A program made the translations under genes and the position numbers. Positions 17,130-48,271 of a DNA stretch of 64,000 bases are shown here, piece by piece. The DNA comes from an uncultured Burkholderiales bacterium (GTDB lineage Bacteria > Vulcanimicrobiota > Xenobia > Xenobiales > QWHO01): positions 15,313 through 79,312 of the forward strand of contig CAYYHB010000002.1 in the NCBI GenBank assembly GCA_964471395.1, given 5' to 3'. Position 1 is the stretch's first letter. Each line of letters begins with the position of its first letter. Under the pieces are notes generated by a model. It worked only from the letters and a program-made list of their open reading frames with translations, was not told where the DNA came from and ran no database searches.

Positions 17130-17511
17130 CGCAACGCACTGCCTCGCGCAAGATTTCCCGGGGCACCTGGTGATCCGTCCAGGTCACCCGGACCCTCACA
17201 CCCACCAGCAGGCCCGGATCCACCCCGACTCGGTTCACGGTGAAGAACTGAACTGAGGGCTGGAACATGGCTCCCCGTCCGGGCGCGGCTGGCAGGGCCT
17301 GGGCCGGCCCGGGCACCAGCTGGCTGAAGGGGCGCGTCAGCTGCTCCTCCAGGATCGAGTCAGCCAGGGCGTTGGCCTGGAGCCGCTGGCCCGAGACCCG
17401 CACGGCCGCCACCGAGGTGGGGTAGAGGTTGAAGATCAGCAGCACCACCAGGGTGAGGATGGCAAAGCACAGGATGGCTTCGGCCAGCGAGGCTCCGCGC
17501 CGCCGCCTCAC
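17116..17511 (-). CDS. pseudopilin (prepilin-type N-terminal cleavage/methylation domain)
   Basis: GTG start 17511 gives MRRRRG|ASLAEAILCFAILTLVVLLIF (G-1, E+5); GTGA overlap with upstream gene stop; only C-terminal third of track ORF 17116..18405 is real. Confidence 0.6.
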   Translation of the reverse strand: MRRRRGASLAEAILCFAILTLVVLLIFNLYPTSVAAVRVSGQRLQANALADSILEEQLTRPFSQLVPGPAQALPAAPGRGAMFQPSVQFFTVNRVGVDPGLLVGVRVRVTWTDHQVPREILREAVRCDVRI

Positions 17512-19082
17512 AGGGTCTGCACCAGCTTGACCATGGGCAGCAAGGTGGCCAGGGCCACGACCCCGGCCATCAGGCCCATGGCCAGCATCATCAGGGGCTC
17601 GAGGGCGGCGGCGGCCATCTCCATGGTGGCCTCCAGCTCGAGCTGGTAGAGCTTTGCCAGCCACTCCAGGGTGCCGGCCACGTGCCCCGACTCCTCGCCG
17701 GCGGTCACGGTGGAGAGAAAGGCGGTAGGGAAAAAGTCGGCCGCAGCCAGGCTCTGGTCGAGTCCGGCTCCCTCGCGCAGGGCGGCCACGCTGGCCTGGA
17801 GGCGCCCCTGAAGCACGGGAGAGCCGGCGGCGGCGCCCGCCTGGGGGACGGCCTCCAGGACGGACAGGCCGACCCGCAACTGCAAAGCCAGAGCCTGGGA
17901 AAACTGGGCCACCGCCACCAGGCGCCACAGGCGGCCGACCCGGGGAATCTCGAGCAAAATGCGGTCGAGCTGGTAGCGGCCTGTCTCGGTTTGCAGAAAA
18001 CGCCAGCCGAGGACCGAGAAGAAAGCCGCTCCGGCGCCCAGGGCGAGCAAGACGCGGCCGTCCGAGAGCGTGAACAGGGCTCTGGTGAGCCAGGGCAGCT
18101 CGCCCCCGATCTGGTCGAGCATCTTCAGCTGACCTTTGAGGAGGAAAGGCGGGGCGGCCAGGATCATGGCCATGCACAGCACGAACAGCACGGCCGGGTA
18201 AGTGAGGGCCGAGCGCAGCCGCAGCGTCAGCGCCCGGGCCCGCTCTTCGTGGTCGGCCAACCGGGCCAGCACCTCGACCAGGCTGCCGGTGGCCTCGCCC
18301 ACCTTGATCAGCTTCAGCTGAAAGTTGGTGAACGAAGGGGAGGCCTTCTGCATGGCCACCGACAGGGGTTTGCCCTGCTCCACCTCGGTCAGCATGCGCC
18401 GGCACACGGCGACCGCCGAAGGCTCGTCTCCCAGCACTGTCAGGGCTCGGGTCAGGGGCACGCCGGCCGCCAGCAGTACCGGTAGCGAGCGCATGAGCAC
18501 CACCAGCGAACGGTTGGAAAGGCGCAGGGCCCTGTCCGGAGCGGGCTTGCTGGCTGGCTCGGGCTGGTAGGACTTACGGGCCGAGGGCAGCGGCGGAGCA
18601 ATCGGGAGCGGAGGGAGGGGAACCAGCTCGGGCGTGGGAGGTCGCTCCAGCTGCCACAGCTTCTGCTCCAGGTCGCGGGCATGGCTGCAGACCTTCATCA
18701 GGTCGAGCGAGGAGAAGGCAACCGCCCTGGAGCAATGGTCGGCGTAGAGCACACCCCGCACGCGTCGCTCAGGGTCCTGCAAAGGCACGCACAGCACCGA
18801 GCGGATGCCGGTCAGGAGTACGCTGGAGTTGTCGGCGAACTCGGGATCCTCGCGCAGGTCACCCGAAAGTAGCGGCAGCCCCGAGTCGATCACCTGGTGC
18901 ACCAGGCCCAGGCTGACCGAGGCGCTCCACAGACCGCGCAGCCCCCGAGAGGCCTGCACCTGGAGCTCTCCTGTGCCGGTGCGGTCATAGAGGATCAGCA
19001 CCCGCTCGGCCTGCAGGCCGTCCAGCACCCGGAACGACTCCTGGAAGAGCCTGGCGATGCTGGAGTCGGTGAGGGTGCCCAT
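17508..19082 (-). CDS. GAF domain - type II secretion/type IV pilus platform protein (GspF/PilC) fusion
   Basis: N-terminal ~150 aa GAF-like fold; two T2SS-F domains (…LPVLLAAGVPLTRAL…IKVGEATGSL… and …LQLRVGLSVLEAV…TAGEESGHVAG…) with three TM regions. Confidence 0.65.
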   Translation of the reverse strand: MGTLTDSSIARLFQESFRVLDGLQAERVLILYDRTGTGELQVQASRGLRGLWSASVSLGLVHQVIDSGLPLLSGDLREDPEFADNSSVLLTGIRSVLCVPLQDPERRVRGVLYADHCSRAVAFSSLDLMKVCSHARDLEQKLWQLERPPTPELVPLPPLPIAPPLPSARKSYQPEPASKPAPDRALRLSNRSLVVLMRSLPVLLAAGVPLTRALTVLGDEPSAVAVCRRMLTEVEQGKPLSVAMQKASPSFTNFQLKLIKVGEATGSLVEVLARLADHEERARALTLRLRSALTYPAVLFVLCMAMILAAPPFLLKGQLKMLDQIGGELPWLTRALFTLSDGRVLLALGAGAAFFSVLGWRFLQTETGRYQLDRILLEIPRVGRLWRLVAVAQFSQALALQLRVGLSVLEAVPQAGAAAGSPVLQGRLQASVAALREGAGLDQSLAAADFFPTAFLSTVTAGEESGHVAGTLEWLAKLYQLELEATMEMAAAALEPLMMLAMGLMAGVVALATLLPMVKLVQTL

Positions 19083-21895: not shown

Positions 21896-23377
21896 CTACT
21901 CTTTTTGAGCACCGGGAGCCTCGCGCAAAAGCTTCAAGCCCTTCTCGGCGTGGGCTCGATCTTCGGCCCTGGTGGCCGGGTCGGCCAGAACGGCCTGATA
22001 GCGAGTTTCCTCCGATTTAGCGAAGGCTGCCATGGCTTCAGGCTTGGTGGAGAAGGCCGGGTAGCTTGGCTGCACTCCGTATTTCGCCATCGCATCCGCA
22101 CGCGCTTCCAGCTCTTCGCGACCCAGGCCCAGGTCTTTGGGGAACTTGGCGACCAGGAATACGTCGCGGGCGGGATCGAGATCCAGGATGGTGGGCCGGA
22201 TGAACTCAGTCTCGCCCCGGAACGTGGTCAGATCCCAGATTTTGAACGTCTCAGCCGGAGTGCGGCCGCCCCGCTCCTCGTAGTCGCGCACCAGTCGACG
22301 CAGCAAGCGGTCGTCGGCACTGGGGCTGTCGAGGTAGACCGCTTTATAGGGCAGGCCCAGTTTCTCGAAATGCTCAACGACCTGAGGGTTGGTGGCGTGG
22401 ATGCTGTCGAGCACGATGATGCTGTCCGAGCCGACCTCCACGTGGTTGGGCTTCTCCTCGCGGAAGCCGGTCACTTTCACGCCTTCCATGCGCCAGCCGC
22501 CGGGGCGGATGTCCTGGAAGTTGTAGACGGGCAGGTCGGCTTCTCCGGTCTGCACCAGGGTGCTCAGGTCTTCCTTGAGCTTTTTCATGTCCATGAAGTC
22601 GGCGTGATCCCAGTAGTAGGAGCCGTCGGCAGCTTGCGGATAGCCCGGCTGGTCGACATCCTTGAAGTACATGTCGCCCATAACGGTGGTCACCGGGCGA
22701 TCGCCGGCGAATTTCTGGATCTCGCGGATCAGGGTGGATTTGCCCGCCGCCGAGGGTCCGCCCACCAGGATGACGACTCGCTCGCCCTGGGGCAGGCCCT
22801 TCACCAGGGCTTCGAGCTGCTCATACTGGTTGTGGGTGCGTCCTTCGTCCAGGGCCTGGGCCACATCGGCTTCGTCCAGGGCACCGGGCAGTCGCAACAC
22901 GTGGGCTCGGCCCTGAGAGTCGACCTGCTGCACTTTCTCGTAGCTGACGGGATACTTGCCGGCCATCTCCTTGATGAGATCGCTGGAGCCGAAGCGCTGG
23001 TTTACCTCGAAGGCGCCTTCCAGGCTGGCCGCGTTGACGGCGTCGGGGCGACTGATGACCAGGGCCCTGGTTTGCTCGCCCTCGGCTGGCATGACTCCCA
23101 CCACGCCCTTGAAGGTGGGGTAGCGGTCCATCTGGTCGATGAGGACTTTGGTGGTGGCCGCCAGGGCTTCCGGGTTGGCCACCTGGGCGGCCGTGAGGGT
23201 GGTGGTAGCCAGATGGGGCTCTCCCTGAACCGTAGCGAGGAGCTGTTGCTTCAGGTTCTGAGCCGGCCGCGGGCCACCAAGTTTGACTTGATCCCCCTCG
23301 GATGGGCATGAGCTGCATGCGCTTTGGGGTCGAGCCACAAAGGATTGGGTGGCCGCGGTCAGGGTCTGCACGGTCAT
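21896..23377 (-). CDS. phosphoribulokinase/uridine kinase-family P-loop kinase with ~200-aa N-terminal extension
   Basis: VVILVGGPSAAGKSTL Walker A in PRK/URK-like context; GGAAGGA SD before ATG 23377. Confidence 0.6.
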   Translation of the reverse strand: MTVQTLTAATQSFVARPQSACSSCPSEGDQVKLGGPRPAQNLKQQLLATVQGEPHLATTTLTAAQVANPEALAATTKVLIDQMDRYPTFKGVVGVMPAEGEQTRALVISRPDAVNAASLEGAFEVNQRFGSSDLIKEMAGKYPVSYEKVQQVDSQGRAHVLRLPGALDEADVAQALDEGRTHNQYEQLEALVKGLPQGERVVILVGGPSAAGKSTLIREIQKFAGDRPVTTVMGDMYFKDVDQPGYPQAADGSYYWDHADFMDMKKLKEDLSTLVQTGEADLPVYNFQDIRPGGWRMEGVKVTGFREEKPNHVEVGSDSIIVLDSIHATNPQVVEHFEKLGLPYKAVYLDSPSADDRLLRRLVRDYEERGGRTPAETFKIWDLTTFRGETEFIRPTILDLDPARDVFLVAKFPKDLGLGREELEARADAMAKYGVQPSYPAFSTKPEAMAAFAKSEETRYQAVLADPATRAEDRAHAEKGLKLLREAPGAQKE

Positions 23378-26225: not shown

Positions 26226-26482
26226 TGGATTCCGAAGAGCAGGTTGCCAATCGGGAGAGCCAGTCCGCCCTGGCGGCCCGTCGACCCGACGACTGGCAGG
26301 CGCTGGGAGAGGCCTTCGAGGCCATGGGCAAGGCCGGACTGGCTTTGACCATCGGCTTCACGGTGGCCGCAGGGGTGTGCAAGATGGCCCAGCAGGGCAA
26401 GCTTAAGCTCCCCGACTTTCTTGGGATGGTAGGCCTGACGCCCCCTGCGCCCGCAGGAAAGGAAGAGCGCCCTACTTCTTGA
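26226..26482 (+). CDS. small hypothetical protein (85 aa)
   Basis: ORF immediately downstream of NHL gene; weak SD. Confidence 0.3.
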
Positions 26483-26915
26483 GTTGCGGCGCGAGCTCAT
26501 CTCGCAGCTTCGCGTATTCAGAGTAGGCTTTATCGGCCGAGCGACGCACCGCCTCGGGGGCCCCTTTGGGGCCGGTAGCCAGATAGTGCTGCTCTTGCGT
26601 CATCCAGTCCATCTCGTAGCCGATCAGGTCGCGTAGCTTGCTGTGCAAGACCTTCAACTCTTGCTTGTCGGGCTCGGGACCGAGGCCCTTCTGGGCCTGG
26701 GCCAACTCCTTCTTCAGCCCTTCCAGCACTATGTCGTCGCGCTCGATCTGGCGGATCTCGGCCGGGCTCAGCCCGGCGGGCTTTTTGATGGACAGGGCCT
26801 TCTTCTCCGAAGCCAGCACAGTGGCGTAGGCCTTCTTCATGGTGGCCAGGCTCCGGGCGTCGTCGGCCAGGGTCGGCAAGAGCAACAGCAACAACAAAAC
26901 GGCCAGTTTTCGCAC
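26472..26915 (-). CDS. hypothetical secreted protein (147 aa, helical)
   Basis: GTG start gives signal peptide MRKLAVLLLLLLLPTLA; upstream part of track ORF is low-complexity artefact. Confidence 0.5.
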   Translation of the reverse strand: MRKLAVLLLLLLLPTLADDARSLATMKKAYATVLASEKKALSIKKPAGLSPAEIRQIERDDIVLEGLKKELAQAQKGLGPEPDKQELKVLHSKLRDLIGYEMDWMTQEQHYLATGPKGAPEAVRRSADKAYSEYAKLRDELAPQLKK

Positions 26916-26956
26916 GGTCGAGGAGATTCGCGGTCGGCTGGATCGGACCCTGGCGC

Positions 26957-28447
26957 TCAGCTCTTCTTGGCCGCCCTCTTGGCCGGGGTGCGCTTCTTCT
27001 GGCGCACCACCAGCTCGCCTTTCTCGGTCTGCACTTCCACCCAATCGCCCTCGTGGTACTGCTCCTCGAGCATGGCGTGGGCCAGGCGGTTCTCTACCTC
27101 TCGTGTGAACAGGCGGCGCAACGTGCCAGCCCCCTCGGGGCCGCCTTCGGCTTTGCCGATCAAGAACTCGTGGACCTCCGGCCGCACCGTCACCTTGACG
27201 CCGCGGCGCTGCTTGAGGTGGCGGGCCAGATCGTTGGTCCATTTCTCCACCAGCTCGGCCATGTCCGAGCGACCCAGGGGAGGGAAGAGCACCACGTCGT
27301 CCACCTGCTCGAGCGCTTCCGAGCTGAGGGCCCGCTCGAGCTCTGGCAGAAGGGCCCGCTCCAGCTTGTCCTGGGCCGAGAGTCGATGGCGATCCGAAAG
27401 GCGAAAGCCCACCGGCTGCTCGCGCTCGAACATGTCGGCGTCAACCACCACCGACAAGATCACCACGTTGTCGCGAAACTCCACCCGCTGCCCGCGCCCG
27501 TCGATCACGTGCCCCCGGGCCAGAATCTGGTGGATCACGTCCAGCGCTCGAGGATGGGCCCGATCGGCATCTTCGAGGTAGAGCACCGAATAGGGATACT
27601 CCTGGGCCAGCATTGTGAGCACCCCCTCTTGCTCCTGGGGCGAGCCGCCGGCGTGGCCGGCCAGGCGCATTGCCCGCAACTCGTCGGAAAACTCGTCCAG
27701 GTTCAGCCGGATGAGCCGCTCGGGGTCGTTGAACAAGAACTCGGCCAGACTGACCGCCAGGGTGGTCTTGCCGGCCCCGCGTGGGCCGGCGAAGAGAAAG
27801 CTGGCCAGCGGGCGACCGGCCTCCGACAGCCCGGCCCACGAGCGCACCAGGGCGGCTGCTACCCGGTCGACGGCCGCATCCTGTCCGATGATCTTGTCTT
27901 TGAGAGTCTGGGCGGACGCCTTCAATCGCTCACGCCACCTCTTGGCCTCGGCCAGCTGTCCGGGGCGCTCGGCGCCCGAGGCCAGCGAGAACACCCGCGG
28001 ACGGCGACGGGTGGGCTCGCCCATCAGCTCTTCCAGGGCCGCCGACCAGCTGACCAGGTCGGCACCGCGGTTGAGAAGCAGGCTGGCAGCGTCGCTGTCG
28101 CGATCCTGCAGCACGGCCCAGAGCAGGTAGACGGAGTTGACCGGGCGCGAGTAGCTGGAGGCCATATCCTCGGCCAGTCGTAGAGCACCCAGGGCCCGCA
28201 GGCTGGGAGGGGGCACCCAGTCCTCCTCCGAGCTTCCTTTCCCCCTGCCAACCAGTACCAGGGCAGCCTTCTTGACCTTGCTGGCGGTAATGCCGCGCCG
28301 TCGCAGAAAGCGCCCGCCTTCCCCGCTGTCCTCCTCGGCCAGTCCGATCAACAGGTGCTCGGGGCAAAGATAGACATGACCCATGGCCCGGCAGGCTTTG
28401 CGCGCCAGCGACAGAGCCTGCACCACGTCGTGAGCCTGAAAGTACAT
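26957..28447 (-). CDS. Clp_N-domain AAA+ ATPase, single ClpB/ClpA D2-like module
   Basis: Two Clp_N repeats then IIGQDAAVDRV...GPRGAGKTTLA (Walker A), ...YSVLYLEDADRAHP (Walker B region, ED), ...GRGQRVEFRDNVVIL (sensor/Arg finger) colinear with ClpB D2. Confidence 0.75.
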   Translation of the reverse strand: MYFQAHDVVQALSLARKACRAMGHVYLCPEHLLIGLAEEDSGEGGRFLRRRGITASKVKKAALVLVGRGKGSSEEDWVPPPSLRALGALRLAEDMASSYSRPVNSVYLLWAVLQDRDSDAASLLLNRGADLVSWSAALEELMGEPTRRRPRVFSLASGAERPGQLAEAKRWRERLKASAQTLKDKIIGQDAAVDRVAAALVRSWAGLSEAGRPLASFLFAGPRGAGKTTLAVSLAEFLFNDPERLIRLNLDEFSDELRAMRLAGHAGGSPQEQEGVLTMLAQEYPYSVLYLEDADRAHPRALDVIHQILARGHVIDGRGQRVEFRDNVVILSVVVDADMFEREQPVGFRLSDRHRLSAQDKLERALLPELERALSSEALEQVDDVVLFPPLGRSDMAELVEKWTNDLARHLKQRRGVKVTVRPEVHEFLIGKAEGGPEGAGTLRRLFTREVENRLAHAMLEEQYHEGDWVEVQTEKGELVVRQKKRTPAKRAAKKS

Positions 28448-30349
28448 CTAGCCGTCCTCCGGAAGCTGGCGCGCGATGCCGTCGAGCAAATCCTCCACCC
28501 GCTCCACCAGCGTGACCTCGGGCAAAAGCCACAGAGCGGGCGGCAGGCGCAGCAGCTCGGAGGCGCTGGTGCGGGGCAAGAGCAGGCGGCGGTAGGGGAA
28601 CCCTTCGCTGGCGAGCTGGGCCAGCGACCCGCCCGGATCCACGGGGCCCGAGAGCCGACCTTCCAGATCGATTCGGCCCAGGACCACCTGGCCGGGAGCC
28701 GGGTCCTGGTTTTGCAGGGCCAGGGCCAGGGCGGCCATCACCGCTCCTCCAGCGTCCTCGCGCAGGCTTGGCCTCTCCTCCTTCTCCTCGCCTCTGACTG
28801 GCTCGTCCAGTCGGGGGTAGAGCGCTGAGACGTGTACGTGCAGCACCCGGTAGGTGGGATCGTCCAGCCCTAGCTCGTCGAAGCGAATCTGCAACAGCGA
28901 CAGGGCCAGGCGCGCCAGCTCGCCGGCCAGCTTGCCCCCTTCTCCGGTCACGATCAGCTCGCCCCGACCGGGTAGCGAGCGGGCTTGCACCAGGAAGCCG
29001 ACCACCCGCTCGGATCCCACCGGATAGACCAGTCCCGGAGAGACCTCCGGCTCGGATCGCAGGCGCTCGCGCTGCACCCGGGCCAGCGTGCTCAGGCGGG
29101 TTTGACCGGTATGGCGAGCGGCTTCAGCCAGCAGGCTCCAACCCTCTTCCAGGCCGGGGCGCAGTGCCAGCAGTTTCTCAAGGCTCTCCAGGGCCGCAGG
29201 CCAGCGTTCCAGCTCTGCCAGGCAGCGAGCCTCGCCCCACAGGGCGGGCCAGCCCGGCTCTGTCTCCAGCAGGCGGGTGAAGAGCTTGAGCGCGGCAGCT
29301 GGTTTGCCTCGGGCGAACTCTTCCTCGGCCCGGGCCAGAGCCGTCTGGTGCTTGCCGTTACTGGCCTCGACCGCTCGCTCGGGCTCGTCCTCCTCCTCCG
29401 CGCTACTTTCGAGCTGGCTCAGGAAGGCTGCCTCGGCTTCCCTGATTCGGCCCAGGCCTAGAAGGCTTTCCGCTTGATAGGAGTGCACCCAACCAGGGGC
29501 TTGCTCGCCCAGCTCGGGCATGATCCTCAGGGCTTCCTGATAGCGGCGATAGTCGAGCAGCAGCGAGGCAACCTCTTCCAGACGCTCGGCGTCGTCGTCG
29601 CGCGTCTTGAGCGACTCGGACAGCTGACTCAGAGCCTCCTCAGGATCGCCCTGCAAGCGGGCGATGCGAGCCAGCATGAGCCGAGCGGCCGAGGCGTCCC
29701 ACTGCAGGGAAAACCGGTCTTCGTGCCAGGTGCCGTCTACATCCAGCTCCAACACGCGCTCGAACTCGGCTCGGGCAGCCTCAAGGTGCTCGGTGCGGTA
29801 GAACAGAACCCCCAGCAGGTAGCGCATCGAGACGCTGCGGGCGTCCTCCTCGAGCGCGCCGTAGGTGCGCTCGAGGGGCGTGGTCTCTTCGGGGCTGCCC
29901 AACTGGTCGAGCACGAACCCATAGAGGGCCAGCGACTCGCTCAAGCGCGGGTCCGAGCCACTCTGCTGCTCGCGTCGCCGCAAGTAGTGGGGCCGCAGCA
30001 GAACGATGTCGGTCCAACGTTGCAGGCGCACAAGCAGGGTGCCCACCCGATCAAGCGGCTCAACCCCGGCGGGCTCGGCGTCAGCCCAGTTGAAATAGGC
30101 CTCCAGTGCTTCTTCCAGCTCACCGCGGGCCTCGCGCACCCCGCCCAACCACTCCCAGTAGAGCGACTTCAACTCCGAGCGCGGGTCGAGCTCGGCCGAG
30201 CGGGCGTAGGCGGCGGCGGCGTCCTCGACCCGATCGATACGCAGATATGCCTCGCCCAGGGTCACCGCCAGCTCGGCATTCTTGGGCTCGTCCTTGAGGC
30301 GCTTCTCGATCTCCTGGATGCGCTCGGCGGCGTCGGGTTGCAGGGCCAT
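28448..30349 (-). CDS. TPR-repeat protein with C-terminal Lon-protease-like (S16) domain lacking catalytic Ser/Lys (pseudoprotease)
   Basis: N-terminal TPRs; C-terminal ...LIVTGEGGKLAGELARLALSLL...YRVLHVHVSA...EDAGGAVMAALALAL...GRIDLEGRLSGPVDPGGS colinear with Lon proteolytic domain but DGPSAG Ser and GGxKEK Lys replaced. Confidence 0.65.
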   Translation of the reverse strand: MALQPDAAERIQEIEKRLKDEPKNAELAVTLGEAYLRIDRVEDAAAAYARSAELDPRSELKSLYWEWLGGVREARGELEEALEAYFNWADAEPAGVEPLDRVGTLLVRLQRWTDIVLLRPHYLRRREQQSGSDPRLSESLALYGFVLDQLGSPEETTPLERTYGALEEDARSVSMRYLLGVLFYRTEHLEAARAEFERVLELDVDGTWHEDRFSLQWDASAARLMLARIARLQGDPEEALSQLSESLKTRDDDAERLEEVASLLLDYRRYQEALRIMPELGEQAPGWVHSYQAESLLGLGRIREAEAAFLSQLESSAEEEDEPERAVEASNGKHQTALARAEEEFARGKPAAALKLFTRLLETEPGWPALWGEARCLAELERWPAALESLEKLLALRPGLEEGWSLLAEAARHTGQTRLSTLARVQRERLRSEPEVSPGLVYPVGSERVVGFLVQARSLPGRGELIVTGEGGKLAGELARLALSLLQIRFDELGLDDPTYRVLHVHVSALYPRLDEPVRGEEKEERPSLREDAGGAVMAALALALQNQDPAPGQVVLGRIDLEGRLSGPVDPGGSLAQLASEGFPYRRLLLPRTSASELLRLPPALWLLPEVTLVERVEDLLDGIARQLPEDG

Positions 30350-30421: not shown

Positions 30422-32614
30422 CTACTGCTGGTACCAGTCCACTTCGCCCGTACCCATCCATCCCTCGGGCGACGCACTTTCGGGCGGCGGCGGGGGAGGG
30501 GGGGCCTTGGGCTTGGGTGCCGGCGGCGGCGCTGGAGCCGGCTCGGGTGTCTCGGGACGAGCCGGCGGCGTCCAGGTGTCTTCTTCATTACTCATCGTGT
30601 CGGCCGCTTGCTCGGCCGACTCGGGCACGGGCAGAGGTCCGACCTTCTCGACGAGCTCTTCGATCCGCCCCTTGATGGTGGGGACTGCCAGGTTGAGTGG
30701 ATCAAGCACGACGAAACGCTGATACAGCTCAAGCGCCCGGCGAAGGTCGTTGCGCTTCTCGGCCACCATTCCCAGGCCGCGCACGGCCACCGAGTCCATG
30801 AAATCGTAGCGCAAAGCGTTGGTATATGCTTCCTCGGCAGCGGTGATGTTGCCCAGCAGTGAGCAGCAGTCACCAAGCAGGCTCCAGAGAGCCGATGAGG
30901 CCGGGGCGCAGCCGGTCTGATGCTCGGCCTGGGTGCGCACCTCTTCAGCCAGCCCCAGGGCTTCCTCTTTCTTGCCCAGGCGCACCATCAGCTTGACCTT
31001 GCGGAACACCTGGTGAATCGAGTCGGGGTAGGCCTCGCAGATCTCCTCCATGGTTTTGAAGGCTTCCTCGACCTGACCCAGCTTCATCTGGGCGGTGGCC
31101 AAAGCCACCGCCAGGTTGGAGTGAACTTCCTCATTAGCATAGCTGCAGCGCAGGCCTTCGCGTCCGGACTCAGCGGCCGTCGCCCAGTCTTCCTGACGAA
31201 CCTTGAACTCGGCCAAGCCCAGGTGGCAGCGGGCGTCACGTGGTGCCTGCTTGACCGATTTGACATAGAGTTTCTCGGCTTCGGCGAGATCCCCCACCGC
31301 TTCGTAGATGGGGGCAATCATGCGCAAGTTGCCTTCGGGGTCGCGATCGTAGATGGCCAGGGCCTCCCGATAGCGTCCGAGCTTGAAAAACAGGTCGGCC
31401 AGGGCGCGCTCGATGGCTCGCCGCACGGACTTCTTCTCGTTGGGGTCGTTGATGATCTCTTCGTAGTAGTCCACCGCGTCCTGGGAACGGCCCATGCGGA
31501 CGTAGAGCCGACCCAGCTCCCACAGGGCCTGGGCGTTCTTGGAGTCGGAGAGGAGGGCTTCCTTGAGGTAGTGAATGGCCTCGTCGAACTCCCCGGCTTG
31601 AATCAGCTGGCCGGTCAGAATCTGCCAGGCTCGTGTGTCGCCGCGATAGGTTTTGACATACTCCTTCAACTCTGCGATCATGCTATCGTTGAGGGCACGC
31701 CATTCCTTGACCATGCCCTTGTTGGAGTAGACCCGCAACAGCTCCACTTTCCATTGGCGGGCATTCTTGTGATCGGTGTTGGTCTTCAGTGAGCGCTCAA
31801 AAAACAGTCGGGCGGCATCCATGTCCTTGACCCGGTAGCTCAGTCGAGCGGCCGAATCGAGCAGGGCAGGCGAGTCGGCTCGGGTCTCGAGGGCCTTGGC
31901 CAGCAGTCGGATGCCCATCTGGTGAAGTTGAATGCGCTTTTCGGTCTCCAACCCCTTGCCCAGCATCTCTTCATAAAAGGTGCCGCCCAGCGGCGCTTCG
32001 TCGGATTGACGCAATTCGAGCAACTTGGTGTAGGAGACTTCGGCGGTCTTCAGGGCCCCGGCCCGCACGGCCGTGGCCGCCAGACGGCGGATGGTCTCGG
32101 GATCGTCGGGTGTGAACTGAGCCACCCACCGACGCCACTCGAGAGCCTTAGTAAAGGATCCTTCCTCTTCCAGTGCCTCGGCCAGCTTGACGCCGAAGAA
32201 GGAGTCGCCGCACACACGAGCCGCCTGTTGCAGGGCGGCCCGCATCGCGGGGCGGTCGTTGGACTTTCGCAGGATGCGGTACTTGCGGATGTGGAGCTCT
32301 TTGTCGTCGGGGTTTTGCTCGAGCGCAGCGTCCACTTCGGCCAGAGCTTCCTCGAGGTTCTCCCTGGGAATATCGCCAAAAATGGGCTTATCACCCTCTT
32401 CGACGGCCATGGGATTCTTCGAGGGAACGTCCTTGCGGACCAGACCGGAGGGCGCAGCGCCGAGCTTCCCACCTTCGGTGGGTGCCTGGCCGGAGCTGCC
32501 CGTGCCTTTGGCAGGCAGCTGCGGTTTGTGCTGCTGATTTCCAGAGCCAAACTTGGGAGTCACCGTATCTCCCTTCCAGAGGCGGGGGCCTGCCCGCCCA
32601 GTTTCATGGTGCAC
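30422..32614 (-). CDS. TPR-repeat protein with Pro/Ala-rich C-terminal tail (start uncertain: GTG 32614 or ATG 32410)
   Basis: Multiple TPR-like helical repeats; C-terminal PETPEPAPAPPPAPKPKAPPPPPPP low complexity. Confidence 0.6.
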   Translation of the reverse strand: MHHETGRAGPRLWKGDTVTPKFGSGNQQHKPQLPAKGTGSSGQAPTEGGKLGAAPSGLVRKDVPSKNPMAVEEGDKPIFGDIPRENLEEALAEVDAALEQNPDDKELHIRKYRILRKSNDRPAMRAALQQAARVCGDSFFGVKLAEALEEEGSFTKALEWRRWVAQFTPDDPETIRRLAATAVRAGALKTAEVSYTKLLELRQSDEAPLGGTFYEEMLGKGLETEKRIQLHQMGIRLLAKALETRADSPALLDSAARLSYRVKDMDAARLFFERSLKTNTDHKNARQWKVELLRVYSNKGMVKEWRALNDSMIAELKEYVKTYRGDTRAWQILTGQLIQAGEFDEAIHYLKEALLSDSKNAQALWELGRLYVRMGRSQDAVDYYEEIINDPNEKKSVRRAIERALADLFFKLGRYREALAIYDRDPEGNLRMIAPIYEAVGDLAEAEKLYVKSVKQAPRDARCHLGLAEFKVRQEDWATAAESGREGLRCSYANEEVHSNLAVALATAQMKLGQVEEAFKTMEEICEAYPDSIHQVFRKVKLMVRLGKKEEALGLAEEVRTQAEHQTGCAPASSALWSLLGDCCSLLGNITAAEEAYTNALRYDFMDSVAVRGLGMVAEKRNDLRRALELYQRFVVLDPLNLAVPTIKGRIEELVEKVGPLPVPESAEQAADTMSNEEDTWTPPARPETPEPAPAPPPAPKPKAPPPPPPPESASPEGWMGTGEVDWYQQ

Positions 32615-32870: not shown

Positions 32871-34928
32871 ATGGCTGGCGAAAACCAGGAGCCGCGCCGT
32901 CTGGGCGGTCGATATGAAGTTCTGGCCCCGCTCGGCGAGGGCGGGATGTCTCAGGTCTTTCGTGGTCGCGATCTCAAGCTTGGACGCGAGGTCGCCATCA
33001 AGATTCCCCGCCCTGAGATCGCTCGCGACCAGGATGCGCGCCTGCGTTTTGTTCGCGAGGGGAAAAGCGCCGCCAAGCTCAATCATCCCAACATCGTCCA
33101 GGTTTATGACTCCTCTGATGAGCCCGATGAGCCGTTTCTGATCATGGAGCTGGTGCCGGGCGAGGATCTGCGCCAGCGTCTGCAGCGCGGCCCACTTCCG
33201 CACTCTCAGGCAGTGGCTATGATGGTTCAGGTCCTGTCGGCACTCGAATGTGCCCATGCCAACGGGGTGGTGCATCGCGATCTGTCGGCCCGCAACGTTT
33301 TGCTCGATGCCCAGGGCTCGGCCCGCGTCTCGGACTTCGGCGTGGCCCAGGCCCTGGGAGACCAAACCCTGACCAGGACAGGAGAAATGCTCGGCTCGGT
33401 CAGTTACATGTCTCCCGAGCAAGCTCAGGGAAAGGACTCAGGCCCACCCACGGACATCTATGCGGCCGGCGTACTGCTCTTCGAGATGCTGACTGGCCGG
33501 CTCCCCTTCACTGGCGATACTCCGGTGCAGGTGGCCCTCAAGCATATTCAGGAGAGCCCGCCCAGCGCCTCGCAGATCAACCCGGCTGTGCCCCCCGGGC
33601 TCGACCAGGTGATCTTGCAGGCCCTGGCCAAGCGCCCCGAAGATCGCTTCGGCTCGGCCAGCGAGATGGCTCGCGCTCTCCAAGAAGGCTCGGCTCCCGT
33701 TCCCGGGCCGATCCTCGAGCACACGCGGGTGCGACAGCCTGCCGTCCGCCCCCCGGTGGAGCCCAGGGCGTCTGCCCCTTCGCGCGCTCCCTACATTTTC
33801 GGTGTTCTGGCCTTGCTGGCGGTGGTATCGGTGCTGGTCGGAATGCTGCTCATGCCCCCTCCCAGCGTGGTGGTGCCCGATCTGGTCGGACTCGAGCTCA
33901 AGGCCGCGCGCCAGAAGGCTGAGGCCCTGGGCTTGCGATTGGAGGTGTCCGAGCGTCGCCCTGATACCGCGGCGGAGAAGGATACCGTGCTCGAGCAGGA
34001 TCCGACCCCCGGCGAGTTGCGCAAGCAAGGCGACTTCGTGCGAGTGGTGGTGAGTCAGGCTCCCGAGAAGGTGGCCGTGCCCGACCTTTTGGGCAAGACC
34101 GAGCCCCAGGCGGTGGAAACCCTGGAGTCACTCGGTTTTCGCGTTTTGCTCGAGCGTGAGGAGAGCGCGACCGTGCCGGGGGGGCGGGTGATTCGCCACG
34201 ACCCGTTAGCCGGGGAAGAGCTCCCTCGGGGCGGTCAGGTCAAGGTTTTCATTTCGACCGGAGCAGCCAAAACGGCCATCCCCAACCTGGTGGGCATGAG
34301 TCGCCAGGAGGCTGAGGCTCTCCTCAAGAGCCTGGAGATGACGTTGGTCGTGGGCGGGACCCGTCAGGATGCCAGCGCCCCCGAAGAGACGATCTTGGAG
34401 CAGCTCCCGTCGCCCGGAACGCTGGCCGTGAAGGGTCGTAAGGTTTCGGTGATCCTCTCGGCCGGGTCGCTTGGAATGACTGCGCCCGATCTGGAGGGAA
34501 AGTCGCTCAAGGAGGCCGAGGAGATCGCGCGAAGGTCGGGTCTCAAGCTGGTCGTGGAGGGTCCGAGCAGTCCCCAGGACTCGGTGGTCTTCCAGGATCC
34601 GCTGCCCGGCGACCCGATCAAAGGGAGCACGGTGACGGTGAAGACCAACCCCAGCGTGGTGGTGCCCAATCTCAGCGGTCTGGGCGAGGACGATGCTCGC
34701 AATCAGCTAGAGGAATTGGGCCTGAAGGTGGGGGACACCCGCCGCATCAATTCGGCTGCCCCCGAGGGCGAAGTGGTTGGACAGGAGCCCGACTCGGGCA
34801 TGGAAGTGTCGCCGGGCACGCCCGTTCACCTCTACGTGTCCGACCCGAGCGCTCCGCTGCCTACTCCCGACCCTGTTCTGACACCAGTCGAGCCGTCCTC
34901 GCCCGCGCCGCCATGGGTTCCTCGGTGA
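32871..34928 (+). CDS. Ser/Thr protein kinase with TM and five extracellular PASTA domains (PknB/PrkC-like)
   Basis: Hanks motifs (GEGGMSQVF, VAIK, HRDLSARNVLL, DFGVA, SPEQ); TM; repeated VPDLVG...A...L...GL PASTA units. Confidence 0.85.
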   Translation: MAGENQEPRRLGGRYEVLAPLGEGGMSQVFRGRDLKLGREVAIKIPRPEIARDQDARLRFVREGKSAAKLNHPNIVQVYDSSDEPDEPFLIMELVPGEDLRQRLQRGPLPHSQAVAMMVQVLSALECAHANGVVHRDLSARNVLLDAQGSARVSDFGVAQALGDQTLTRTGEMLGSVSYMSPEQAQGKDSGPPTDIYAAGVLLFEMLTGRLPFTGDTPVQVALKHIQESPPSASQINPAVPPGLDQVILQALAKRPEDRFGSASEMARALQEGSAPVPGPILEHTRVRQPAVRPPVEPRASAPSRAPYIFGVLALLAVVSVLVGMLLMPPPSVVVPDLVGLELKAARQKAEALGLRLEVSERRPDTAAEKDTVLEQDPTPGELRKQGDFVRVVVSQAPEKVAVPDLLGKTEPQAVETLESLGFRVLLEREESATVPGGRVIRHDPLAGEELPRGGQVKVFISTGAAKTAIPNLVGMSRQEAEALLKSLEMTLVVGGTRQDASAPEETILEQLPSPGTLAVKGRKVSVILSAGSLGMTAPDLEGKSLKEAEEIARRSGLKLVVEGPSSPQDSVVFQDPLPGDPIKGSTVTVKTNPSVVVPNLSGLGEDDARNQLEELGLKVGDTRRINSAAPEGEVVGQEPDSGMEVSPGTPVHLYVSDPSAPLPTPDPVLTPVEPSSPAPPWVPR

Positions 34929-47092: not shown

Positions 47093-48271
47093 ATGAATCT
47101 TCAACGCGTGCTGGTAATCGTGATGGACGGCTGCGGGGCCGGAACTGCCCCCGACGCCGAGCTCTTTGGGGATGTGGGGGAGAATGCGGGGGATACCCTG
47201 GTGCACCTGGCTCAGAAAGTAGGCGGGCTACGCATTCCAACCCTGCGCTCGCTTGGTCTGGGGAATTTCCTGGCCCTGCCGGGGGGCCTCCCGGTCGAGC
47301 ACCCGCGGGGCTCCTATGGCCGTTTGACCGAGCGCTCGGTGGGCGGAAAGGATACCGTCACCGGCCATTGGGAGATGATGGGCATCGTGACCGAGAGCCC
47401 CTTTCCCACCTACCCGCAGGGCTTTCCTCCCGAGGTGATCGAGCCGTTCTGCGCCGCTATCGGTTCTCCGGTGCTTGGCAACTGCGCTGCCTCGGGCACC
47501 GAGATCCTCAAACGTTTCGGTCCCGAGCACCAGGCGACCGGTCATCCCATCGTTTACACCAGCGCTGACAGCGTGTTTCAGATCGCTTGTCACGAGGCAG
47601 TCATTCCCATTGAGCGGCTCTACGACTTTTGCCGGGTCGCCCGCGGCCTCTTGACGGGGCAGCACTCGGTACAGCGGGTCATCGCACGACCCTTCGAAGG
47701 AACCTTCGAAGGGGGCTATCGGCGTACCGAGCGCCGCAAGGATTTTCCCCTCTCGCCGCCCGAGAACGTCATCGACCGTCTGGCAGCAGCCGGGGTCAAG
47801 GTTGGGGGTATCGGGGTGATCCCCGAGCTATTCGACGGCCGCGGATTCGCATTTGCTCGCCGCACCCAGTCTAATGAGGATCACTTTCAAGCCACCCTGG
47901 AGGCACTGACCACTGACCTGGGCTTTCTGTTCGTGAATTTCGAGGATTTCGATATGCTCTTCGGGCATCGCAACGACTGCGCTGGCTTTGCTGCCGCGCT
48001 GGAAACCTTCGACGGCTATCTTACCGAGATTCTCAACCGCCTCGGGCCGCATGACCTTCTCATCGTGACCGCCGACCATGGCAACGATCCGACCACACCG
48101 TCCACTGATCACAGTCGCGAATATGCTCCCCTGTTGCTCTTCAGCCCCTCGCTTGCGGGCGGGCGCGACTATGGCATTCGAGAGAGCTTCGCCGACATCG
48201 GGGCGACTCTGGCCGAGGTGTTCGGGGTAGCCCCTCCTCCGGTGGGCAAGAGCCTGCTCGATCAGGGATAA
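47093..48271 (+). CDS. deoB: phosphopentomutase
   Basis: VLVIVMDGCGAGTAPDAELFGDVGENAGDTL and C-terminal TADHGNDPTT metal-binding motifs. Confidence 0.85.
   Translation: MNLQRVLVIVMDGCGAGTAPDAELFGDVGENAGDTLVHLAQKVGGLRIPTLRSLGLGNFLALPGGLPVEHPRGSYGRLTERSVGGKDTVTGHWEMMGIVTESPFPTYPQGFPPEVIEPFCAAIGSPVLGNCAASGTEILKRFGPEHQATGHPIVYTSADSVFQIACHEAVIPIERLYDFCRVARGLLTGQHSVQRVIARPFEGTFEGGYRRTERRKDFPLSPPENVIDRLAAAGVKVGGIGVIPELFDGRGFAFARRTQSNEDHFQATLEALTTDLGFLFVNFEDFDMLFGHRNDCAGFAAALETFDGYLTEILNRLGPHDLLIVTADHGNDPTTPSTDHSREYAPLLLFSPSLAGGRDYGIRESFADIGATLAEVFGVAPPPVGKSLLDQG

Follow-up and report, generated by a model that had tools for sequence, protein, structure and literature searches.

A conserved gene pair of the uncultured class Xenobia encodes a degenerate ClpC-like AAA+ protein and a TPR-fused Lon-like domain without its catalytic dyad

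Results

Organization of the gene pair

The DNA analysed here, i.e., a window of 64,000 nucleotides (nt) from contig CAYYHB010000002.1 (assembly GCA_964471395.1), carries on its minus strand a gene for a protein of the AAA+ type (ATPases associated with diverse cellular activities) next to a gene for a protein composed of tetratricopeptide repeats (TPRs) and a Lon-like domain. Open reading frame (ORF) calling placed three genes head-to-tail on this strand, namely 30422-32614 (730 amino acids, aa), 28448-30349 (633 aa), and 26957-28447 (496 aa), and the last two form the pair that is the subject of this study.

28448..30349, minus strand: TPR + pseudo-Lon gene (predicted), 633 aa; from ORF calling, Pfam TPR families and Lon_C, and 27 orthologues
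26957..28447, minus strand: gene for Clp_N plus a single degenerate AAA+ module (ClpC D2-like), 496 aa; from ORF calling, Pfam/NCBIfam, PDB sequence search, and AlphaFold2 (AF2)/Foldseek
28445..28460, minus strand: gene junction, GGAGGA + 7 nt + TAG/ATG; from sequence reading
30422..32614, minus strand: gene for a 730-aa TPR protein, a loosely linked neighbour; from Pfam TPR families

The two genes of the pair abut, as the initial annotation of this DNA had described. Their junction reads ...GGC TAG ATG TAC..., i.e., the TAG of 28448-30349 is directly followed by the ATG of 26957-28447, and 7 nt separate this ATG from the end of a GGAGGA hexamer that resembles a Shine-Dalgarno sequence. A scan for promoters and terminators returned nothing above background.

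The upstream gene encodes TPRs and a Lon fold without the Ser-Lys dyad

29105..30349, minus strand: TPR region, residues 1 to ~415; Pfam TPR_2, TPR_19, TPR_16, and TPR_14 between residues 7 and 410
28451..29092, minus strand: Lon-protease-fold domain without the dyad, residues 420-633; from AF2, Foldseek, profile search, and motif check
28748..28759, minus strand: E531-D532-A533-G534 in place of Lon P-S-A-G; from alignments and the start of the model helix at E531
28616..28633, minus strand: G573-G-S-L-A-Q578 in place of Lon G-G-L-K-E-K, with the Lys lost; from alignments

In the N-terminal 415 residues of the 633-aa protein Pfam detected TPR-type repeats only, with ~50% identity across the class, and the AAA+ module sits in the next gene rather than in the same polypeptide. 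The Lon-type C-terminal region proposed in the initial annotation was recovered by several approaches: Pfam Lon_C matched residues 452-623 with 30 bits (cut-off 21.1, E 4.9e-7), phmmer aligned residues 420-630 with LonA protease domains among the PDB sequences (E ~1e-8), and the AF2 model of residues 420-633, based on 21 orthologous sequences, reached a predicted local distance difference test score (pLDDT) of 88 and a predicted template modelling score (pTM) of 0.85. The best Foldseek matches of this model were LonA protease domains (E ~1e-13, template modelling (TM) score 0.7-0.8), including hexameric structures of isolated LonA protease domains, followed by the C-terminal domain of BrxL.

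Both catalytic residues are replaced, and the structural check that had been suggested for this loss was run and agrees with it. The catalytic Ser corresponds to Asp532, and the helix that in Lon starts at the nucleophile (PSAG) starts in the model at E531 of EDAGG; the segment that carries the catalytic Lys reads GGSLAQ. Among 1.84 billion representative proteins, a profile search with the domain retrieved ~27 proteins of 544-741 aa in which the domain is C-terminal (E below 1e-24), below which the scores drop sharply to canonical Lons (E ~1e-18), and no intermediates between the dyad-less family and canonical Lons were found among these representative proteins. The motif check found the dyad gone in all 27 orthologues and in every family representative checked among the ~27. 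The Ser column holds mostly D or E, with a few other residues and never a conserved Ser, and Lys occurs at the GGSLAQ segment in no family member; all canonical Lons from the same search keep DGPSAG and GG[LIV]KEK. The E. coli Lon, ClpP, and ClpX references used in this study served only as alignment guides or queries, and the Lon motifs were confirmed on database Lons. When the Lon-like domain alone was used in a word-indexed search, one near-identical fragment was returned, and it was the full-length protein and the profile search that gave the relatives.

A displaced nucleophile was also considered, namely Ser528 of an RPS motif, which phmmer aligned to the Lon Ser. This Ser is restricted to the window protein and its closest relatives; other orthologues have Ala, Thr, Leu, or Glu instead, with Ala already in proteins that are ~85% identical, and the residue was therefore rejected as a conserved nucleophile. 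On sequence and model the Lon-like domain is thus predicted to be a pseudo-protease.

Outside the family, one protein of the representative library (P0143, 610 aa, from a GC-rich organism) combines a fragment of an Hsp70 substrate-binding domain with TPRs and Lon_C (E 3.5e-39), and carries an intact DGPSAG and GGIEEK in place of Lon GGLKEK. Fusions of TPRs and Lon_C with a retained Ser thus exist outside the family, and might mark the ancestry of the latter.

The downstream gene encodes a single-ring ClpC-like protein with lost motor motifs

28028..28447, minus strand: Clp_N domain, residues 1 to ~140; Pfam, two stretches
27764..27787, minus strand: Walker A G221-PRGAGKT-228, intact in the window protein; from alignment
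27569..27586, minus strand: degenerate Walker B V288-LYLED-293 (VVLLDE in ClpC); from alignment

Pfam confirmed that the 496-aa protein consists of Clp_N repeats and one AAA+ module, with matches to Clp_N (PF02861; two stretches, E 2.4e-14), AAA_2 (E 2e-21), and ClpB_D2-small (E 4.8e-10). The NCBIfam models of ClpB, ClpA, ClpK, and ClpV align to it with their last 300 residues and with scores far under every cut-off, e.g., 210.8 bits against a cut-off of 1232.1 for TIGR03346 (ClpB), with which it is colinear over residues 553-852 of 853. The best match among PDB sequences was D2 of Bacillus subtilis ClpC (E 2e-61, versus ~1e-47 for ClpB), and it is D2 alone that aligns (query 172-486 to ClpC 496-808). 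The AF2 model of the whole protein has a pLDDT of 84, its top Foldseek matches are ClpC and ClpC1-ClpP complexes, and its D2 core superimposes on nucleotide-binding domain 2 (NBD2) of Thermus thermophilus ClpB with a target-normalised TM-score of 0.89.

The motifs of the window protein and 45 single-module relatives (474-530 aa) were tabulated after alignment with genuine ClpB, ClpC, and ClpA D2 domains. The Walker A Lys is present in 44 of the 46 members and replaced by Arg in two. The window protein has Thr behind this Lys; across the family, Thr or Ser occupies the position in a minority of members, and Ala, Leu, Asn, or Gln in the others. Walker B reads ED, ES, EE, EG, EN, QD, or KD; the DE of genuine D2 domains occurs in none of the 46, and the ED pair reported for the window protein in the initial annotation is real (VLYLED versus VVLLDE in ClpC). 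Likewise, no member has an aromatic residue in the pore loop (GHAGG-SPQEQEG in the window protein versus GYVGY in genuine D2) or the sensor-2 Arg (GAG in the window protein versus GAR in genuine D2; Gly, Glu, Asp, or Ser across the 46). The other two positions were lost less uniformly: the sensor-1 Asn, which is Val in the window protein (LSVV), is kept in about half of the 46, and the Arg finger, which is Ser in the window protein (LSSEA), in about a quarter to a third. In an alignment of 24 sequences, box II GQ and an RSWAGL element are invariant or nearly so.

As judged from these motifs, the family has clearly been freed from selection for ATP hydrolysis and substrate threading. The P-loop Lys is kept, and the AAA+ protein therefore probably still binds nucleotide. 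This bears on the AAA+ unfoldase of the initial annotation, which in an active form would feed or remodel the substrates held by a TPR-scaffolded dead protease. The window protein does have an intact Walker A and an acidic pair, and its fold is that of a complete Hsp100 D2. However, the pore-loop Tyr, the DE of Walker B, and the sensor-2 Arg are gone in all 46 proteins, which makes an unfoldase role implausible; the window protein in addition lacks the sensor-1 Asn and the Arg finger, and the family often has Ala, Leu, Asn, or Gln behind the P-loop Lys. We therefore consider an active unfoldase highly improbable.

The degeneration followed different routes in different branches, as seen among the AAA+ subclades (proteins P0020-P0045, loci L011-L015). 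One subclade combines Walker A GKA with Walker B ES and keeps the sensor-1 Asn and, in most members, the Arg of the Arg finger, while the subclade of the window protein shows the opposite pattern, with GKT kept and both the sensor-1 Asn and the Arg finger lost. The Lon-like partner of the GKA/ES subclade has a 14-residue insertion (DQLFGWGR...). Among the ClpC-like matches, P0050 is a two-ring protein on a contig with the classic clpC-radA synteny, and was considered as a candidate for the canonical ClpC of the lineage that carries the pair.

A ClpP-type docking loop and a disordered linker are retained

27401..27415, minus strand: P345-V-G-F-R349, hydrophobic-Gly-Phe loop at the ClpP-docking position of ClpC/ClpA; from alignment
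27989..28018, minus strand: family-specific linker motif E144-PTRRRPRVF-153; from the 24-sequence alignment

The PVGFR loop aligns with YVGF of B. subtilis ClpC and with LGF/VGF of the ClpC- and ClpA-type references. A hydrophobic-Gly-Phe loop is present in 46 of 46 members, with G347 and R349 invariant and P345 and F348 invariant or nearly so in the 24-sequence alignment, and the ClpB references are deleted at this position. Since this near-invariant ClpP-docking loop is kept and is absent from the ClpB references, the AAA+ protein is closer to the D2 of ClpC/ClpA than to that of ClpB; together with the ClpC matches by sequence and structure, this replaces the earlier assignment as ClpB-D2-like. 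The hydrophobic-Gly-Phe motif anchors Clp ATPases in the H-sites of ClpP, and its mutation abolishes the binding of ClpC to ClpP (PMC12521514). Moreover, the LGF motif has already served as a bioinformatic criterion for the ClpP partnership of new Clp classes (PMC10149685). The loop is accordingly regarded here as a predicted ClpP-docking feature.

Among the 24 sequences, the linker positions T146, R148, R149, and P150 do not vary, and conservation is at least 90% at E144 and R147. This linker (residues 144-160, pLDDT below 50) and the loop (344-355) are the only internal disordered segments of the AF2 model. Because they are invariant and disordered, both look like docking peptides, and in the linker this combination would be typical of a linear motif that binds a partner.

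The Clp_N domain is conserved as well: E30-H31 of the (T/P)EH motif is invariant in repeat 1 and lost in repeat 2. Such an N-domain on a protein that has lost its motor residues would also suit a ClpC-like decoy or poison subunit, which would act as a sink for the ligands or adaptors of the ClpC N-domain, or would damp ClpC hexamers by mixing into them, with the TPR + Lon-like protein governing its availability. There is a precedent for a partial ClpC homologue as a protective decoy, since mycobacterial ClpC2 is reported to be an N-domain decoy that is a sink for cyclomarin (PMC10030653). However, a pure N-domain decoy needs no conserved D2 fold, P-loop Lys, D2-small domain, or docking loop, and we rate this possibility as improbable.

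Conservation, distribution, and selection

A scan of one genome per species identified 16 loci with family members, and in each of them the TPR + Lon-like gene lies immediately upstream on the same strand, as read by tblastn and ORF calling. At the two most divergent members (36-41% identity), which are located on metagenomic contigs beside a two-component system and in a neighbourhood unlike that of the window, the TPR + Lon-like gene overlaps the start of the AAA+ gene by 4 bp. In total, all 18 related loci, which are attributable to Candidatus Xenobia and reach down to 36% AAA+ identity, carry the two genes side by side, and the genes either abut (0 nt), overlap by 4 bp (ATGA), or are separated by ~50 nt or less; the conservation of the two genes as neighbours, on which the initial annotation had made its proposal depend, is thus complete in these loci.

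The third large TPR protein of the initial annotation does exist at 30422-32614, and its Pfam matches are TPR families and related helical-repeat models only. Its gene lies upstream of the pair in transcription order and is adjacent only in the window and in loci L001-L004; elsewhere it has been displaced or inverted. Together with pta, an NHL-repeat gene, and the PASTA kinase gene, it is usually found near the pair, but in rearranged order, and we therefore regard the third TPR protein as a neighbour of the pair rather than one of its fixed parts.

Between the window and L004, the ratio of nonsynonymous to synonymous substitution rates (dN/dS, Nei-Gojobori) was 0.09 for the AAA+ gene and 0.15 for the TPR + Lon-like gene, which shows that both genes are functional and under purifying selection. 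The TPR and Lon-like parts of the latter gave 0.14 and 0.18, and every domain of the pair falls between 0.03 and 0.18, the same range as two neighbouring genes (0.09 and 0.125). Decay into pseudogenes was rejected on these values.

The AAA+ protein of the window is 97% identical to proteins of metagenome-assembled genomes named Candidatus Xenobia and Eremiobacterota. Those family members that carry a name derive from bins of Xenobia (a class of the phylum Vulcanimicrobiota), UBP9, Eremiobacterota, or Vulcanimicrobiota, with a few records labelled otherwise. The pair is confined to the uncultured class Xenobia, the other labels being taken as mis-binning. In public annotations, the family members are called 'AAA family ATPase', 'tetratricopeptide repeat protein', or 'hypothetical protein'. 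Pair-bearing or window-like records (up to 97% identity) under unrelated names are L001, L006, L008, L013, L015, L016, P0036, P0075, and P0090; the names include 'uncultured Burkholderiales', 'Selenomonadaceae', 'Candidatus Nitrosotenuis', and the alga Phaeothamnion confervicola, and probably reflect mis-binning or contamination.

The strict pairing raises the possibility of a split Lon-type machine that does without ClpP, in which the ClpC-D2-like ring would stack on the dead Lon ring in the manner of the AAA+ and protease rings of Lon itself. The loop or the linker would dock on the Lon-like ring, and the TPR and Clp_N arms would capture clients for a nucleotide-bound holdase or scaffold. 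The inseparable and apparently translationally coupled genes, the intact Lon fold under selection, the retained Walker A Lys, and the lack of a linked clpP in the window or the related loci are all compatible with this arrangement, and the D2 module of Clp proteins and the AAA+ module of Lon belong to the same AAA+ clade. On the other hand, the conserved loop is exactly the ClpP-type tripeptide, and we know of no Clp ATPase that docks on a Lon protease domain, so that the arrangement is considered unlikely.

Neighbouring genes and the defence hypothesis

The initial annotation had listed anti-phage defence among the possible roles of the pair, i.e., a defence or conflict module. Lon-like domains do occur in BrxL, whose C-terminal domain is matched by the model of the Lon-like domain, and combinations of TPRs and NTPases are reported to be frequent in conflict systems (PMC7159879). 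The locus itself, however, argues otherwise. The neighbours of the pair encode phosphate acetyltransferase (Pta), a uridine-kinase-like protein, a PknB-type PASTA kinase, ribulose-phosphate epimerase (Rpe), and adenine deaminase, and no BREX or repair genes were found near the pair. PADLOC returned weak and generic matches only (BrxL with E 0.0047 at 13 bits; DolB and PDC-M37B with ~28 bits on the P-loop region), the base composition is uniform along the window and not atypical, synteny is conserved across the class, and the gradient of sequence identity looks vertical. The neighbourhood is a housekeeping one, a defence island is unsupported, and a defence role has a very low probability.

Directly downstream of the AAA+ gene lies a small ORF (26472-26954, minus strand) without Pfam matches, which contains a hydrophobic stretch resembling a signal peptide (RKLAVLLLLLLLPTLA) and is conserved only in the closest relatives L001-L004. 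Its actual start is probably internal, since the longest version of this ORF, 26472-27242, runs into the 3' end of the AAA+ gene. In the 730-aa TPR protein, the first 85 residues are of low complexity and the C-terminus forms a proline-rich tail (PAPAPPPAPKPKAPPPPPPPE); its gene is transcribed divergently from that of the PASTA Ser/Thr kinase (32871-34928), and both genes remain close in several relatives. Three further minus-strand genes of the window encode the following proteins:

17508-19082, minus strand: 524 aa, N-terminal GAF plus T2SSF (PilC/GspF-type platform) domain
21896-23377, minus strand: 493 aa, uridine-kinase/PRK family with a 180-residue N-terminal extension that matches nothing
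48262-51261, minus strand: 999 aa, C-terminal PD-(D/E)XK nuclease domain, possibly AddB-like

Discussion

The two genes are best explained, albeit tentatively, as a translationally coupled operon for two pseudoenzymes. Most likely, the pair regulates or scaffolds proteolysis rather than performing it. How it would do so is less certain, and our leading but provisional proposal is that the two proteins together form a scaffold without catalytic activity, which would dock on ClpP or on Clp partners. The AAA+ protein would be a ClpC paralogue that has shed the D1 ring, the M-domain, and the D2 residues for ATP hydrolysis and threading, and that retains Clp_N, the P-loop Lys, the disordered linker EPTRRRPRVF, and the flexible hydrophobic-Gly-Phe loop with which ClpC, ClpA, and ClpX dock on ClpP. 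The mechanism is envisaged in four steps: I) the Lon-like domains would assemble into a ring, as isolated Lon protease domains do; II) the two proteins would be joined by TPR and Clp_N/linker surfaces, the TPR solenoid being the presumed peptide-binding element; III) the motor-less ClpC-like ring would sit on ClpP via its hydrophobic-Gly-Phe loops, or on ClpC adaptors via Clp_N; and IV) the assembly would tune Clp-dependent proteolysis in Xenobia as a cap, a competitor of ClpC/ClpX, a gate-keeper, or a substrate-holding adaptor. The Lon-like ring could in addition serve as a template for the hexamer of an ATPase that, without D1 and Arg finger, might not assemble by itself. A more far-reaching possibility, namely a catalytically inert chimera of a ClpC-derived and a Lon-derived ring whose loops either cap ClpP or dock on the dead Lon ring, is considered unlikely.

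Several points weigh against the leading proposal. Neither clpP nor clpX was found in the window or in any related locus with the E. coli queries. The hydrophobic-Gly-Phe loop could serve another partner, and a single D2-like ring without an Arg finger may not form hexamers. Moreover, with GKT and an acidic pair (ED) still in place, the window protein might show residual, slow ATP turnover. Finally, contact between the two proteins, ring formation, binding to ClpP, and a regulatory role are all predictions from sequence and models.

Among known systems, ClpC, a class I unfoldase of the Hsp100/Clp type and a partner of ClpP, is the closest by sequence and structure, and it shares with the AAA+ protein the Clp_N domain, the D2-type AAA+ fold with a D2-small domain, and a docking loop at the same position. 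In contrast to ClpC, the window protein has neither the D1 ring and M-domain nor the catalytic D2 motifs and the pore-loop Tyr, and it has a linker motif of its own. The likeness to ClpB consists of the colinearity and the structural fit of D2 given above, whereas ClpB has two rings and a long M-domain, and the ClpB references have no hydrophobic-Gly-Phe loop. The Lon-like domain has the fold of LonA (S16) and passes the Pfam cut-off of Lon_C, but differs in that Ser679 and Lys722 of LonA correspond to Asp and to Ser/Leu, with the dyad absent family-wide, in an insertion of 15-25 residues before the 'Ser' helix, and in its fusion to TPRs instead of an AAA+ module.

Lon-fold domains also occur as ring-forming or structural modules beside other NTPases, as in RadA/Sms with its RecA-like NTPase. 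In BrxL, the C-terminal domain of which is a structural match, the Lon-fold domain likewise stands next to a P-loop NTPase. RadA and BrxL, however, use other NTPases (RecA-like and BrxL-specific AAA+, respectively), are single-chain proteins, and are DNA-related. Non-catalytic relatives are known from the Clp system as well, e.g., plastid ClpT, which like ClpC2 is an N-domain-only protein, and plastid ClpR, a dead ClpP. Like ClpC2, ClpT, and ClpR, the pair might belong to the non-catalytic paralogues that regulate or assemble a Clp system, although none of these joins Clp_N to a dead D2 or is paired with a Lon-like protein. LonC is reported to be a Lon-like protease whose AAA-like module is degenerate and inactive as an ATPase (PMC3391209), and is thus a Lon-family machine whose AAA+ part has lost ATP-powered unfolding. 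In LonC, however, the protease is active and part of a single chain, whereas here the protease domain is predicted to be dead, the AAA+ module is of the Clp type, and the two reside in separate genes. In the full-text literature searched, no account was found of the pair or of a D1-less, dead ClpC paralogue, in line with the earlier impression that the arrangement is undescribed. Through the obligate pairing with a dead Lon domain, the Clp and Lon lineages meet in a single operon, a link of which the literature searched gave no description.

Among kinases and rhomboids, pseudoenzymes are familiar as regulators of their active counterparts, and to our knowledge they are rare in the field of bacterial AAA+ proteases. 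The family described here has shed D1, the pore loops, and the hydrolysis residues, and has kept the N-domain, the P-loop Lys, and the docking loop under purifying selection. This pattern is that of a natural separation-of-function mutant and suggests that docking and binding alone are useful to the cell. The finding is of interest to specialists in AAA+ proteases, although the pair is confined to one uncultured class and known from sequence and models. If the chimera of ClpC- and Lon-derived rings holds true, it would constitute the first 'pseudo-unfoldase' that regulates a bacterial compartmental protease, i.e., a motor-less gate-keeper or adaptor hub specific to Xenobia. If the pair does act on the Clp system as proposed, it would represent a new layer of ClpP regulation and provide the first functional handle on proteostasis in this uncultured class.

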